This document shows, in pieces, positions 14,581 through 19,598 of a stretch of 64,000 bases of DNA. The stretch is from an uncultured Chloroflexia bacterium. Lineage in GTDB: Bacteria > Chloroflexota > Anaerolineae > JAAYZQ01. Each line of letters begins with the position of its first letter. Positions within the stretch are counted from its first letter, which is position 1. The notes under the pieces were generated by a model that did no database searches, was not told the origin of the DNA, and was given only the letters and a program-made list of their open reading frames with translations. The DNA lies in NCBI GenBank assembly GCA_963700285.1, contig CAVOXA010000001.1, positions 1,184,001 to 1,248,000 on the forward strand. The letters run 5' to 3'. The position numbers were made by a program, and so were the translations under genes.

Positions 14581-14610
14581 ATTGTACACCATCAGGTCAA
14601 TGCCTGTCAA
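14581..14610 (-). promoter_or_regulatory. Sigma-70-type promoter of the SHOCT gene
   Basis: Minus strand TTGACA-N18-TACAAT. Confidence 0.55.
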
Positions 14611-16154
14611 AGCGAGATCCCGGCCTGGGCACCATCCAGGAAGGTCGGGGCGTAGACACGGATGGCGCTCTCGCCACCCAGCGGACACTGGTACTCGCAG
14701 ATGCCACAACCGATGCACAGTTCCCGGATGACCCGGGGGCGCTGCAGTACAACCGTCTCGCCCTGGGCGTTGAGAGCTTTGACCTCGTCCAGTTTGATGG
14801 CCTTGTCCTCCACCGGACAGCATTCCTCGCAAACGATGCAGTGTGTGCTGTAGGTCCAGGGCAGGCAGCGGTCGCGGTCGATGCGGGCCAGGCCGATGGG
14901 CGTGTGTTGCTTGACGACGAGCGCCATCTCTGGGATTGCGCCAGTGGGGCAGACGTGGCTGCAGGCGTTGCAGCCAAAGTTGCAGTAGCCCAGGCGCGGC
15001 ACCAGGCGTGGGGTCAGCATGTTTTGCACGCCGCCCTCAAAGAGACTGGGTTGCAGACCTTGGGTGGGGCAGACGCGGACACAGGCGCCGCAGCGGGCAC
15101 AGAGAGCGCTGAAATCAACGGGGGCCGCACCTGGGGGACGGATCATGGTCGCCGGTTCCCGGAATACGATGGGCTCTACACCAGCAAGCGCGACGCCAGC
15201 GGCGGATACGCCTATGGCAGCCAGAACCTGCCGGCGCGTGGGGTCATAGTCGTGCCGTGTTGCTGGCCGCCAGGCGGGCAGTTGCCAGTGGAAGCCAATC
15301 TCTGAGCGTGAACAGTCTACCAGACAGTCGAAACAGACGATACACTCGGCCGGATCGCTGCGGAAGTTGTCGTGTAGGTCGATGGTTCCTGTTGGGCATT
15401 GATGGCTACAACGGGCGCATTGTACGCAGTCGTCGCTCACTTTTCGGCGCACTAGTGAGAGCTTGGAGACCAAACCCAGCAAGCCGCCCAGGGGGCAGAG
15501 ATAGCGGCACCAGAAGCGCTGCGCCCACCAATTCAGGGCTACCAACCCGGCGAAGAGGAGAGCGACCAACATCGTCAAGCTGAACACGGGCTGTATCTCC
15601 TGGAAGAGGGGCCGCGTCAGCGAGTTGTGTAGCAGGTCCAACACCCCCCACAGTGGGGAAAACTGGTACAGGAATGCCTCGGTCTGCAGGACTGCAGAAT
15701 GTAGGGCGGGCCAGATGGCCGTTGCCATCGTCCGGTTGAGGATGGTAATGGGATCAAGGATCATGAGTGTCTGGTTGCCCAGAAGGGCCGCAAAGAGGAT
15801 GATAACCAGCAACAGGTACTTGATGATGCGCCAGCTTTCGGGAGGGGCTTTGCTTCGCCGCCGCCGGGGCGCCAGCCATTCCAGTACCGTCCCCAGGGGG
15901 CAGATCCAGCCACACCAAACCCTTCCGAACAGCAGCGTGAGGAACAGCACGAGTCCGGCCAGGATCAGGCCAGCCTGTAGCACTCGCCCGGCCAGCGTGG
16001 CCGCGGCCATGAGGAGGGGGTCGAGGCGGGAAAAGATATCCGCCCAGAAGGCAACTGGCCTCTGGGCATTCGCGTAAACAAAGAGACCGGCATAGAGCAG
16101 CAGCGCCAAGATCTGCGCGCCCTGCCGGAATCTGCGCCAGGCGCGAGGGCTCAC
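14607..16154 (-). CDS. Membrane-bound polyferredoxin (NapH/MauN-like plus NapG/MauM-like 4Fe-4S domains)
   Basis: GRVWCGWICPLG and FWCRYLCPLG motifs, several CxxCxxCxxxCP clusters, internal TRRQVL and IRPPGA. Start placed at GTG 16154. Confidence 0.88.
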   Translation of the reverse strand: MSPRAWRRFRQGAQILALLLYAGLFVYANAQRPVAFWADIFSRLDPLLMAAATLAGRVLQAGLILAGLVLFLTLLFGRVWCGWICPLGTVLEWLAPRRRRSKAPPESWRIIKYLLLVIILFAALLGNQTLMILDPITILNRTMATAIWPALHSAVLQTEAFLYQFSPLWGVLDLLHNSLTRPLFQEIQPVFSLTMLVALLFAGLVALNWWAQRFWCRYLCPLGGLLGLVSKLSLVRRKVSDDCVQCARCSHQCPTGTIDLHDNFRSDPAECIVCFDCLVDCSRSEIGFHWQLPAWRPATRHDYDPTRRQVLAAIGVSAAGVALAGVEPIVFREPATMIRPPGAAPVDFSALCARCGACVRVCPTQGLQPSLFEGGVQNMLTPRLVPRLGYCNFGCNACSHVCPTGAIPEMALVVKQHTPIGLARIDRDRCLPWTYSTHCIVCEECCPVEDKAIKLDEVKALNAQGETVVLQRPRVIRELCIGCGICEYQCPLGGESAIRVYAPTFLDGAQAGISL

Positions 16155-16188
16155 TTGGTCCCTTGTCTTTCGTCTTTCCTCAACTCTG

Positions 16189-17154
16189 CTAGACCGCAAT
16201 CTCTTCGATCTGGATGGACGACAGGTCCAGGATACCCAGGCCCATCTCGGCCGCGGCTTTGACGTAGGCAATGTCCTCGCCCACCAGGTCAAATAGGGTG
16301 GCCGCGTAGGCGTCGGCGGCGACGATGTCGTGGCTGGCGATGACGGTGTTGGACAGGCGTACATCATCCAGGCTGCCGCCGCCCGGCCCGTGAGCTACGA
16401 GCGTGCGCACGGCATCCACCACGGTCAAATTTGGGCGCACCAAGCTGACCAGGTCAGCCGTGCGCTGGCCCAGGTTGCTGTGCATCTTGTTGCGGTTCTG
16501 GACGACGCCCAACAGGTTTTTTCCTGCCAGGCTCAAGCGAGCCAGGCTGTGATGTTTGGCAATTGGTACGTCGATCACCACGTCGGCGTTGAGAACTTGC
16601 TGATAGACTGGCCAACTGCTGATATCTCTGCCCTCTGGGATGTCGGTTTCTCGGAACTTGGCGGGGTTCATCGCTTCCATCTGGCCGCCGGCTGCGGCCA
16701 CAGCGTCGGCGATGCCGCTGCGTGCGTAGGCGCTTTCGGCACTCCCGCCAAAGGGGCTGTCCATGACACGCACGCGCCGGGCGCCCGCGCCCAAGCATAG
16801 CTCGACCAGTGTTGCCACTACCTCTGGGTTGGTCGTCGCGGCATACTCAAAAGTACGAAAATCAACACAGATGTTGGGCTTGACGATGACATCGTCGCCG
16901 TCTTTGACAAAGCGTTCCATGCCGCCGATAGCTGCCAAAGCGGTCCGGGTTAGTGCTGCTGGTACACTCCCGCGGGCCACTGCCAGGTAGGCAGCGTCTC
17001 TTGGCGGAGGCAAGGGTATCTCGGCCTGCGCCCGTGGTAAGCTGGCGGGTTCCTTACCCCCACAGGCAGCAAGGGCTGTTCCCAGTCCGGCGGCTGCTGC
17101 CAACCGGACGAACTGGCGGCGGGTGACTGTGCCTGGCTTTTTGTGTGGATTCAA
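16189..17154 (-). CDS. DUF362-domain protein with Tat/lipoprotein signal
   Basis: VTRRQFV...ALAACG; GGMERFVKDGDDVIVKPN, TTNPEVV, PIAKHH and DIVAADA motifs; AGGAGG RBS before TTG 17154. Confidence 0.88.
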   Translation of the reverse strand: MNPHKKPGTVTRRQFVRLAAAAGLGTALAACGGKEPASLPRAQAEIPLPPPRDAAYLAVARGSVPAALTRTALAAIGGMERFVKDGDDVIVKPNICVDFRTFEYAATTNPEVVATLVELCLGAGARRVRVMDSPFGGSAESAYARSGIADAVAAAGGQMEAMNPAKFRETDIPEGRDISSWPVYQQVLNADVVIDVPIAKHHSLARLSLAGKNLLGVVQNRNKMHSNLGQRTADLVSLVRPNLTVVDAVRTLVAHGPGGGSLDDVRLSNTVIASHDIVAADAYAATLFDLVGEDIAYVKAAAEMGLGILDLSSIQIEEIAV

Positions 17155-17184
17155 AGGTACCTCCTGCCTACTTTCTAGAGCAAG

Positions 17185-17213
17185 AGCATACCACACATGC
17201 TGATGGCTGTCAA
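17185..17213 (-). promoter_or_regulatory. Sigma-70-type promoter of the DUF362 operon
   Basis: Minus strand TTGACA-N17-TATGCT with an extended -10 TG. Confidence 0.65.
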
Positions 17214-17582
17214 ACGCCATCTGGCAGGCCCAGGTTCGCGGTAGGATGGGCAAAGCCCTCCTCATGATGACCTGTACACGAGGCGCAAGGGTATTCGAAG
17301 CAGAAGGTTCCTTTAGTAGGGGATTTGAGGGGTGCGGGTGGGGTTGATCGGTCAACAAATGCCAGCCAAGGCAGGTTGAAACGAAGCAGAAGCGAGTAGC
17401 AGACCGGGATGAAGGATTCCGGCAGGCAGTTTGGTCCTGAGAAGGCAGTTGAGAGGGCTGTGGGGCAAGTTTGCGGCTTGGGGAACTGCTTCTGAAAGGC
17501 AGAAAAGGGATGGGCAAGCAGGGGGCAGCACACCACGCGGAAGAGCATCCATGAGGCTTTCAGCGTGATAGGCAGACCGCAC

Positions 17583-18225
17583 TTAGACAGTGACGAAGGT
17601 AGTCTCGCGCACGAGACGGGCGAGAGTAGTCAGGGTAGCCCAGGTATCAGCCAGGTAGGCGAGGGCTTTGCCCCGCAGTCCGCCATATACCAGCAGGCGC
17701 TTGAGGTTCCAGTGCTCGAAGGTGGCATTGCGGGCTTCCGAAGTGTTCCGGGCTTGATGGTAGAGACGTTTCCAGGCGCTAGAGCCCACGGGCAGGTCGC
17801 GCGCCAAGCGGATGGAGCCATTGGTGAAACGTTCCCCCAGATTGAAGATTTTACCAAAGGGATGAGTAGAGGCGTCGGGATAGAAAAGGGGCAATTGCAG
17901 AAGAAGGGAAGCGCCTGGCACCTCTTCCCGCTCATTGGCTGCAGGAAATCGGCCAGCAAGGCGAGGTGGAAGCGGCGACTGGGGCTGGACGCCGGTTGAT
18001 TGGAGCCCGTGTACCAGACAAAACGAGCTTGGGCATCCCGGGGCGTGGCGTGGTGGCAGGCCTCGACACAGGCGGGGGTATCACAATCACAACCCCGGCG
18101 CTCTTTCTTCTTGGCCGGGCAGGGACGCGGGTTGTCGGAGCCCGTAGGTTGGTAGCAGCTCTGCTGTATGGAGGTACAGCGCATGCGGGAAGCCGCATGG
18201 AGGAGCATGCCGTCCGGTTAGCCAT
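17583..18225 (-). pseudogene. Internally deleted, frameshifted DDE-type transposase (IS5/IS1182-like)
   Basis: Fragments in three frames: MANR / DGMLLHAASRMRC...PCPAK...GCDCDTPACVEAC...RDAQARFVWY / ...WKRLYHQARNTSEARNATFEHWNLKR. The last carries a Y..R...E..N signature like the C-terminal catalytic Glu region of IS4-clan transposases. Confidence 0.65.
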
Positions 18226-18920
18226 GTCGGCCTCCTCGCCACCGTAACCAGCGCTGAGTGTCGGCCTCGACGGTCTCGTAATCGGCCAACGTGTGGCGGG
18301 CCAGGAGAGAACGCAACTGCTGGGAGTGAGCGGGTTGGCGAAGCCAGATCAAGGCTTCAGTATGCAGTTGGCGCGCCCGCTCGCCGTTGACGCTCAACGC
18401 AGCGCCGATCGCAGAATAGAAGACTTGGGGCTTCCCAGTTAATTCACAGCGAGCCAGACGACGATGCGCAATCGCTCTGGCAGCCGGGCAAGGAGATCCC
18501 AGAAGGCGGAGCGGATGGCATCTGCTTCCCAGGCTTGGGCTGGATCTGTCGTTCCCGCCGCCGAAGAAGAGGCTTCGTCGAGGTCAAGATGTTCCATGGC
18601 TCGACAAGGGGCACGCTCGGCAAGCTTGACCTCTCGCCAGACCTGGTGCATAATGGAGGTCCAGGCGTAGGTGGAAAAGGCTGTTCTCTGCTCGGGATCA
18701 AAGCCCAGGATGGCGTGCCACAGGCCAATGCGACCCGCCTGCAAGGCCTCGGCAAATGGCAGGTCGCCCAAGACCTGCTTCCGCACGACGGCGTGGACTA
18801 AACCCTCGTGCGCTGCCATGAGTCGCGCCAGACTGTCTCGGTATCCCGCTTGTGTCTGGCGGAAAAGGGCGGCCCCGGTGGGCTGACCAGGGAACTCGGG
18901 CGAAAACCTTTGGGTTGATA
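18220..18920 (-). pseudogene. Sigma-70 family RNA polymerase sigma factor (regions 2 and 4), frameshifted near 18452
   Basis: ALFRQTQAGYRDSLARLMAAHEGLVHAVVRK...EALQAGRIGLWHAILGFDPEQRTAFSTYAWTSI (region 2), LLARLPERLRIVV, then in a shifted frame YSAIGAALSVNGERARQLHTEALIWLRQP (region 4 HTH) to RGGRHG*. The stop overlaps the transposase start. Confidence 0.8.
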
Positions 18921-19172
18921 GCGGACTTCAGTTCTGCTTCGAAAGCTGCATGGGTGAAAGTTGTCCTACGGCGGAGTCCATGGTAGAATAGGCTGGCCTG
19001 TAGTGCTCGCCTGGGCTTGGTGAAGGCGAATTTCGAGCCGCAGCGTTGGCTCTTCCCAGGAGGAGAGAAATGCGGCTTGACAGCCGATAACCCTGCCCCG
19101 GGTGGCAGTGTGGTACTGGCTGTTTTCTTTTCTGGGAAAGGGAGCAAACGGTTCACTTGAAGGAGGGAAAGG

Positions 19173-19598
19173 ATGTCAGATCAACCGCAGTACGAACAGA
19201 GGCGCGACGAGAAGGACGAGAAGCAGGAAAAGGGAAACGGGGACAGTTGGGACGAAAAGTGGCGCCGTGACCCTGTGGACGCTGCCATGTGGGCCCTTAT
19301 CCTCATCTGGGTCGGGGTGGTGCTGCTGGGCGCCAACCTGGGCTTTTTTCGGGGATTGCCGCTAGAATCCTGGTCCATCGGCTTTTTGGGAGCTGGCGTC
19401 ATTGTGCTCTTGACGGTGCTCTTTCGCTTGCTGGTGCCGGCTTACCGGAAACCTCTGGGCGGTACCGTCATCCTGGGGGTGATCTTTATCGGGATTGGCC
19501 TGGGCGCCAAGGTTGGATGGATCATCATTGGACCCTTGGTTCTGATTGGCATCGGCGTGGGTATCATCCTGACGGGCATCTTTCGGAAACGCGAGTAG
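19173..19598 (+). CDS. Small integral membrane protein (about 4 TM)
   Basis: 141 aa; AGGAGG RBS; charged N-terminus followed by hydrophobic helices. Confidence 0.75.
   Translation: MSDQPQYEQRRDEKDEKQEKGNGDSWDEKWRRDPVDAAMWALILIWVGVVLLGANLGFFRGLPLESWSIGFLGAGVIVLLTVLFRLLVPAYRKPLGGTVILGVIFIGIGLGAKVGWIIIGPLVLIGIGVGIILTGIFRKRE

Follow-up and report, generated by a model that had tools for sequence, protein, structure and literature searches.

An insertion sequence family of Anaerolineae that carries a sigma-like gene and inserts at a fixed distance upstream of host promoters

The closest described counterparts of the element reported here are TnGBS, ISLre2 and ISKra4, which have Mutator-like transposases and insert 15–17 bp upstream of sigmaA promoters, and for which contact with host polymerase has been proposed (PMC3942029, PMC4701971; here and below, statements on cited papers refer to the available portions of their text). 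We characterized a decayed insertion sequence (IS) at positions 17289–18946, minus strand, of a 64,000-nucleotide stretch of DNA (hereafter the window; contig CAVOXA010000001.1, positions 1,184,001–1,248,000) from an uncultured Chloroflexia bacterium of the class Anaerolineae (GCA_963700285.1, hereafter G000). This copy retains 1658 nt of ~2.8 kb. An initial annotation of the window had proposed a decayed member of a multi-copy IS family with a sigma-like core gene of its own, and the relatives bear this out: the sigma gene lies upstream of the transposase gene in 112 of 114 distinct loci, the two misses being short fragments. Copies lie just upstream of promoter-like sites of the host. We propose, with a probability of roughly 0.7 on the sequence evidence, that the cut-down sigma of the element is its target selector, bringing the transposase 14 bp upstream of host housekeeping -35 boxes.

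By BLAST, the element region matched another 14 stretches of G000, all of them incomplete and spread over five contigs. Among these, the longest piece of transposase (377 amino acids, C10:774730) matched 1356 proteins among 7995 candidates; these relatives were mostly of ~565 amino acids, without Pfam annotation, and lay on 2–5 kb contigs, as expected because a repeated element breaks assemblies. In total, 161 loci from genomes and metagenomes were examined. Each of the 114 distinct loci covered the N-terminus of the transposase plus no less than 400 nt of upstream sequence; of the rest, 7 left too little room, 17 lacked the N-terminus, and the others were duplicates or gave no match. Linkage of sigma and transposase persisted down to 32–42% transposase identity, and the distances of the two proteins were correlated over 73 elements (0.83). 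The pair occurs as a multi-copy unit at unrelated loci with shared ends and target-site duplications, and the single-copy, unlinked sigma gene that would have told against the annotation was not what we found: G000 has nine left ends, and identical elements occur with different flanks (L014/L058, L066/L067). Counting G000 each time, the family was present in 12/23 genomes from the window's order, 25/301 from its class and 5/401 sampled from its phylum. Its hosts are sediment bacteria, and the record titles of relatives name Anaerolineae. Viral contigs searched yielded no relatives of the sigma-linked family and one weak match for a sigma-less sister family (see below); relatives on the plasmids searched were all sigma-less. 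The contig of the intact element L014, 3 kb long, is assigned to a genome of Thermotogae, which may reflect misbinning or a transfer.

Complete elements of the window's clade measured 2723–2893 nt in 57 of 58 cases. Their 17-bp terminal inverted repeats, GGGnnTTCGAAGCAGAA, are complementary within the 58 elements and fall to background level at position 18, while distant clades have variant terminal repeats and lengths of up to 3000 nt. The perfect 12-bp inverted repeat noted initially (17294–17305/18932–18943) is present in the window; taken on its own it ranked 21 of 77 inverted pairs there, and it is genuine because it forms the core of the 17-bp repeat at both ends of 58 relatives. The bounds first proposed for the element (17294..18943) captured this core. 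The true extent, set by the points at which other copies in G000 part from the window, is larger, with the left repeat lacking its outer two bases. A 5-bp direct repeat surrounded 4 of 58 elements (0.09 expected). Target repeats that are palindromic or of zero length were weighed and rejected, since solely the 5-bp class clearly exceeded expectation; 3-bp repeats (4/69) were near chance.

The flanks of these ends revealed a common landmark. Outward from 64 left ends, T, T and G occupied positions 15–17 in 51, 56 and 54, respectively, with TATAAT-like bases at 38–43. A fixed promoter rule (TTG at offset 14–17; a -10 box with A2, T6 and 4/6 matches; spacer of 16–18) was passed in the window's clade by 56/68 left flanks as compared with 5/74 right flanks. 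In distant clades it was passed by 4/14 left and 13/18 right flanks (8/13 without five right ends that were placed by hand after being seen), and in random genome windows by 333/200000 (0.17%). The distance from element end to -35 box was exactly 14 nt in 62 of 78 sites and the spacer 17 nt in 63 of 78; 47 of the 68 left flanks fell at one offset and none at offsets 1–13. Within G000, a promoter at offset 13–15 was identified by eye for nine of nine left ends and for none of the six right ends listed. Insertion of this linked gene pair is targeted, with a fixed geometry and an orientation specific to the clade. Of the three roles initially suggested for the sigma, the targeting of promoters is the one that the flanks support.

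The window copy conforms to this pattern, the -35 box standing 14 nt beyond its left end and the promoter being directed away from the element. The same promoter is conserved in a congener, G263, at a site without the element, where the two flanks are joined over TGCAT. Its consensus match suggests that the promoter is active. Two further observations concern the sites. Another family end lies a few bases outside the end in L070, L094, L097, L103, L107, L110, L111, L046 and L095, which suggests repeated insertion at the same promoter. In L120, L199, L203, L104 and L094, promoter-like sites stand at offsets of 14–16 nt on both flanks; either the element inserted there between promoters that diverge, or the contigs combine two oppositely oriented copies.

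The identification of a sigma-70-type gene on the minus strand of the window was upheld by matches of the region 2 frame to PF04542 (E 1.5e-8) and of the region 4 frame to PF04545 (E 0.028). Intact sigmas are mostly of 210–243 amino acids and matched both families above cut-off in six of six scanned; regions 1.1, 1.2 and 3 gave no Pfam match in the intact sigmas. Against the host genome, two RpoD-type proteins matched at E 1e-31 and extracytoplasmic function (ECF) types at 1e-5 or weaker, and against PDB, RpoS and SigA came first (E 1e-30). The alignment to host RpoD spans only residues 218–295 and 336–454, the linker of ~40 amino acids aligning weakly. The protein retains the RpoD C-terminal motif LRHP..S, which is followed by an extra conserved C-terminal helix of 25 amino acids. 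Judged by these comparisons, it is derived from RpoD and stripped of regions 1 and 3. PADLOC reported a weak match to the MZA defence system that covers region 2 only; the sigma scored 48–63 bits for MzaA against a cut-off of 800, and its neighbour is the transposase, with no mza operon. The median ratio of non-synonymous to synonymous substitution rates (dN/dS), over 177 non-independent pairs, was 0.25 for the sigma (region 2, 0.19; region 4, 0.13; tail, 0.145) and 0.17 for the transposase; by this measure the sigma gene is under purifying selection.

Residues of the sigma were numbered as in E. coli from ungapped PDB alignments. The equivalents of F427 and Y430 are conserved in 74/74 sigmas. 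At W433 and W434 the element sigmas have mostly P/T and C/A/S, respectively, W being outside the three commonest residues at either position, and the Q437 equivalent is H or R in 72/74. Positions 407, 409 and 413, which we take to face core polymerase, are A, R and W. The altered residues belong to regions 2.2–2.4. In E. coli, W433 and W434 are among the residues required for promoter opening, Q437H relaxes the requirement at -12, sigma70 that lacks region 1.1 shows weak DNA binding in the absence of core, and peptides of sigma70 regions 2–4 sense spacer length (PMC2613000).

Sigma-less relatives provided a control. These single-gene elements (22–29% identity) occur on Bacillota plasmids (L158, L159, L161–L163) and in Anaerolineae (L168–L171, L213–L282), G000 included (L171, G000:C15:140021-141936). 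They are of 1.8–1.9 kb, start with GAG, have ends GAGnnnTCTCGGAAAGT and 4–6 bp repeats, and encode a similar Cys cluster. None of 85 sister ends passed the promoter rule. The ends were collected by repeat pattern from 40 fetched regions plus loci gathered before; many belong to short non-coding derivatives, 18 carry a mismatch, and some one-mismatch matches are possibly chance. A Shine–Dalgarno-like (AAGGAGG-type) word starts 9–14 nt outside 25 of the 67 exact-match sister ends, a placement seen in 1.9% of random windows and in 3 of 174 flanks of sigma elements. On these counts the sister appears to be a second landmark-targeting family. Mycobacterial IS900, from another family, is an analogue.

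The sister family and the -35 sequences of the targets bear on the best of the alternatives, in which the transposase docks on host RNA polymerase–sigmaA at promoters and the element sigma only transcribes its own operon. There is precedent for targeting through a host factor at 15–17 bp (PMC3942029, PMC4701971). The putative promoter of the element is also unlike its targets, with G at -12 in 34/65 and TTG at -35 in 6/65, as compared with T at -12 in 78/78 targets; together with the H or R at the Q437 equivalent, this makes a private promoter for the sigma possible, although the departure from the target consensus also fits avoidance of self-insertion. An extended -10 TG, in 42/78 targets, likewise favours docking on the host holoenzyme. 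However, with the host holoenzyme choosing the site, the targets of every clade would be expected to follow the -35 spectrum of the host, and they do not. TTGAC occurs in 390 of 856 intergenic promoter-like sites of G000 (46%), yet in 0/43 targets of elements whose -35 helix is ERARQ; with other helices it occurs in 10/18 targets of the same clade and 12/16 of distant clades. Hosts with two clades gave the same picture, the targets being TTGTGA and TTGCAC versus TTGACA three times in G686, and TTGCGA and TTGTGT versus TTGACA in G690. C at -31 was present in 27/31 sites when the R584 equivalent is basic and in 21/46 when it is small (p 2.7e-4), the direction expected from E. coli genetics, in which R584 of sigma70 contacts -31 and its substitution relaxes -31 (PMC2613000). 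Moreover, the sigma-less sisters do not target promoters, and the scarcity of W at positions 433 and 434, which are among those needed for promoter opening in E. coli, is at odds with a purely transcriptional role. We regard docking on the host holoenzyme as unlikely.

A second alternative makes the sigma an accessory end-binding or regulatory protein, which binds the two ATCAACCCC motifs (their complement starts TTGA) or represses the operon, while a domain of the transposase, for instance the Cys cluster, or a host factor selects the target. The ATCAACCCC motif indeed stands at fixed distances from both ends, its CAACCC core persists in distant clades, and constraint on the sigma is strongest in region 4. 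Such a role leaves unexplained the conservation of region 2, including the F427 and Y430 equivalents, and the match between helix and target -35. The end motif remains TTGA-like in ERARQ elements even though their targets avoid TTGAC, and the Cys cluster is also found in the sigma-less sisters, which choose other sites. We consider this reading quite improbable. An outward promoter formed by the left ATCAACCCC complement and the repeat core was tried as a candidate and rejected, no matching -10 being conserved at the right-end copy. Finally, although all sites are survivors in natural genomes and selection favours intergenic copies, untargeted insertion followed by survival only of copies just upstream of promoters is close to refuted and very hard to credit, as survival alone gives neither the single-base precision of the offsets, nor the end-specific orientation, nor the different pattern of the sister in the same host class.

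Selection of the target by the element's own sigma could proceed as follows. The sigma–transposase operon, probably coupled in translation through the overlap of its two genes, would yield a sigma that binds host -35 and -10 boxes, region 4.2 presumably reading the former and region 2 the latter. The C-terminal helix, or the altered surface of region 2.2, may bind the transposase, so that the sigma would recruit a transpososome formed at the terminal repeats together with the inner copy of their core, the latter being a likely second transposase site. The Tn5-like transposase would then link the element ends to 5 bp of target DNA located 9 bp upstream of the -35 hexamer, each clade preferring one of the two ends. 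In doing so the sigma might be free, bound to the transposase, or part of a complex with host core RNA polymerase. The element would probably benefit by landing safely between genes, with the core promoter left intact. With somewhat less assurance than for target selection itself, we favour a history in which a transposon captured the primary sigma of its host, stripped it to two promoter-reading domains and made of it a protein guide retuned via the -35 helix, the sigma-less sister using a Shine–Dalgarno motif instead.

Several observations weigh against target selection by the sigma. Helix states were assigned by profile alignment and change 6–9 times on a tree built by a quick method that carried a long-branch-join warning and gives no root or order of events. 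Seven independent pairs could be drawn from it, of which on average 2.8 differed in the predicted way, 0.5 in the opposite way and 3.7 not at all (p 0.5, median of the sign tests); for two further helix traits, five pairs were likewise non-significant. Because kin are non-independent and the independent pairs fall short of significance, the covariation of helix and -35 is suggestive. One distant-clade element, L190 in G693, is an exception, lying at TTGCCA, and the host promoter background was drawn from one genome. Sigma and transposase are co-inherited, and a change in the transposase could therefore cause the -35 shift. The comparison with sigma-less elements is one evolutionary contrast, at 22–29% identity, and most of the 85 sister ends were assigned by repeat pattern rather than by a transposase gene. 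The extended -10 TG is present in 32/61 near-clade targets although the sigma lacks region 3, its reader (PMC2613000), and could indicate host sigma. TnGBS and ISLre2 insert at almost the same place, and the available text reports no targeting sigma for them (PMC3942029). Lastly, just 6 of 69 complete elements display the 5-bp repeat directly; its absence on most contigs probably reflects chimeric assembly or rearrangement.

The intact transposase is of 565 amino acids, and 13 diverse members all share D218, D371 and E514. A model built from a 105-sequence alignment had a mean predicted local distance difference test (pLDDT) score of 91.7, and its top Foldseek matches were Tn5 transposase structures (E 8e-4, probability 1.0). 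The fold was assigned by Foldseek, at 10–11% identity and a TM-score of ~0.3 over the query. An earlier model from 59 close sequences (pLDDT 56.8) had no Foldseek match, a failing cured by the 105 sequences. A search of PDB sequences with the transposase profile gave zero matches. The best named family was IS1182 (NCBIfam NF033551), at 14–27 bits and E 2e-6 to 1e-2; as this is far under the cut-off of 270 bits, the transposase is IS1182-like and not a member, while the sigma-less sisters match the same model at E 3e-17 to 3e-14. No family passed in a Pfam scan, and no Mutator or ISLre2 model in Pfam or NCBIfam matched. Neighbours of the transposase in the Atlas carry the Pfam domains DUF772, DDE_Tnp_1 and DDE_Tnp_1_6, and representatives clustered at 50% identity, searched by profile, yielded 882 matches, 159 of them at E 1e-30. 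The downstream frame, for which absence of a DDE (Asp-Asp-Glu) fold had been contemplated, has a Tn5-type fold, and the element is a DDE insertion sequence, with a catalytic triad, terminal repeats, target duplication and multiple copies. The Cys cluster noted beside the DG motif is present; it is no peculiarity of this element, since the sigma-less sister transposases have a similar one.

Features of the window copy and its flanks. Positions are those of the window.
Feature	Position	Strand	Remarks
Left terminal inverted repeat	18932-18946	minus	outer 2 of 17 bases missing
Right terminal inverted repeat GGGTATTCGAAGCAGAA	17289-17305	plus	
5-bp target repeat TGCAT	18947-18951	plus	partner TGCAA at right end of 197-bp mini-copy 365 kb off, G000:C1:1567530
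5-bp target repeat CGCAA	17284-17288	plus	exact partner at mini-copy left end, G000:C1:1567726
Host sigma70-type promoter (target)	18961-18989	plus	TTGTCC 18961-18966, 17 nt, TAGAAT 18984-18989
Subterminal motif ATCAACCC(C)	18911-18919	minus	fixed position 30 of left end; in 63/68 left ends
Sigma-like pseudogene (RpoD-derived regions 2 and 4, C-terminal helix)	18218-18893	minus	start lost, frameshift 18457
GGAGG ribosome site and transposase ATG, overlapping sigma 3' end	18223-18236	minus	
Transposase remnant, ~amino acids 216-296	17978-18217	minus	holds first catalytic Asp D218 and Cys cluster
Transposase remnant, ~amino acids 327-361	17874-17977	minus	1-nt loss at 17943
Transposase remnant, ~amino acids 476-564	17583-17873	minus	holds catalytic Glu E514; D371 in deleted part
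Conserved hairpin, then TGCCCCCTGC, directly past transposase stop	17518-17565	minus	
Inner copy of terminal-repeat core, ~102 nt from right end	17379-17391	minus	at 101-103 nt in 57/69 right ends
Second ATCAACCCC motif, 59-60 nt from right end	17340-17348	minus	in 53/69 right ends

The window copy is 84% identical to the intact element L014 (1363/1624), against which the frameshift and internal deletions of a dead copy, as first described, could be mapped. An 85-nt deletion at 18893 removed the promoter, the ribosome site and the sigma start codon, which lies at ~base 113 in intact copies. The closeness of the terminal repeat to the sigma frame had been correctly seen; it was made by this deletion. 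The sigma gene has also lost 1 nt at 18457. The GGAGG and ATG that had been reported to overlap the sigma stop are in place; this ATG (18225) is the true transposase start and is followed directly by a 643-nt deletion. The transposase gene also lacks 90 nt at 17978 and 1 nt at 17943; another 342 nt, with the codon of the second catalytic Asp, are missing at 17874.

The flanks of the window copy are unlike each other because they were swapped with those of the mini-copy (C1:1567530-1567726): CGCAA pairs exactly, TGCAT pairs with TGCAA, and G263 joins the corresponding flanks. A third swapped pair, ACAGC, is divided between C10:654675 and C10:552430 of G000. The swapped repeats thus mark segments rearranged by the element, G000:C1:1201289-1567726 (365 kb) and C10:552430-654675 (102 kb), and G263 retains the other junctions for the 365-kb segment. 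Copy–copy recombination or replicative transposition would account for these rearrangements. Public sequencing runs contained at most 0.31 of the window's words, and the four examined gave fragments with zero joints.

Downstream of the targeted promoter, 19173–19598 encodes a small membrane protein that matches LiaF-TM weakly (E 0.0015); the minus strand at 14607–17271, left of the element, holds a DUF362 gene and a gene for a 4Fe-4S-rich membrane protein. The bulged hairpin and TGCCCCCTGC past the transposase stop are kept in the near, distant and sigma-less families (46 loci), and six of seven predicted pairs show two-sided changes. Rfam gave zero matches for the hairpin region in eight relatives. 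Hairpin and TGCCCCCTGC may function as RNA or, alternatively, as a site on the DNA.

The family has no entry in the libraries and papers searched, ISfinder being beyond their scope, and is apparently uncatalogued there. No IS with its own sigma was found in the literature, which was searched by title and start of abstract, with subscription journals and supplements largely beyond that scope. The sigma gene named in PMC4701971 belongs, in the text available, to Tn1549-type conjugation modules; the available part of PMC9208149 makes no mention of sigma, and that of a 2026 preprint on IS accessory genes (10.64898/2026.09.24.754181) names only Arc, TnpB and Orf121. In dCas12f–sigmaE, as far as the accessible text describes it, a sigma is paired with a transposon-derived protein and drives transcription, with no steering of transposition (PMC13472631).

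If the sigma is the guide, a transposon has found a new way to choose its target, and an exapted sigma would be a third kind of element-encoded selector, beside TnsD of Tn7 and RNA guides. How promoter-targeting transposons find promoters, a question of long standing, would become open to test; for TnGBS and ISLre2, the one proposal is contact with host polymerase. A two-gene, 2.8-kb system in which -35 preference apparently tracks a few helix residues could be developed into a small integration tool with adjustable targets; the domains of alternative sigmas read other promoters. Insertion sites also locate housekeeping promoters with base precision in Anaerolineae, most of which are uncultured. 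Should the guide prove to be something other than the sigma, the searched libraries and papers still contained no IS family that combines a conserved sigma core gene with promoter targeting exact to the base.

Among known systems, IS1182 shares with the element the DDE triad and a Cys-rich insertion between the second D and the E. The element differs by an extra Cys cluster after the first Asp, by the upstream sigma gene and by its promoter-anchored targets; as far as is known, IS1182 family members have a single transposase gene, and the element has a second gene in 112 of 114 loci. Tn5/IS50 (IS4 family) is the top fold match, but Tn5 is not known to have a sigma partner, makes 9-bp duplications and is of loose specificity. 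With the group 1 sigmas RpoD and SigA the element sigma has regions 2 and 4 and the LRHP..S motif in common; it departs from them by the missing regions 1 and 3, the ~40-residue linker, the 25-residue helix and the changes at 407, 409, 413, 433, 434 and 437. The element may be likened to Tn7 (TnsD/TniQ) and to CRISPR-associated transposons, where target choice falls to a separate protein that the transposon encodes; in Tn7 this involves a dedicated DNA-binding protein together with an ATPase adaptor. TnGBS1/TnGBS2, ISLre2 and ISKra4 are alike in their fixed distance upstream of a sigmaA -35 box. They belong, however, to the Mutator-like superfamily and make 8-bp duplications, as against a Tn5/IS4-type fold and 5 bp here, and the available text on them mentions no element-encoded targeting sigma. 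The element resembles TnGBS in its landing place, is no member of the TnGBS family, and carries its own likely guide.

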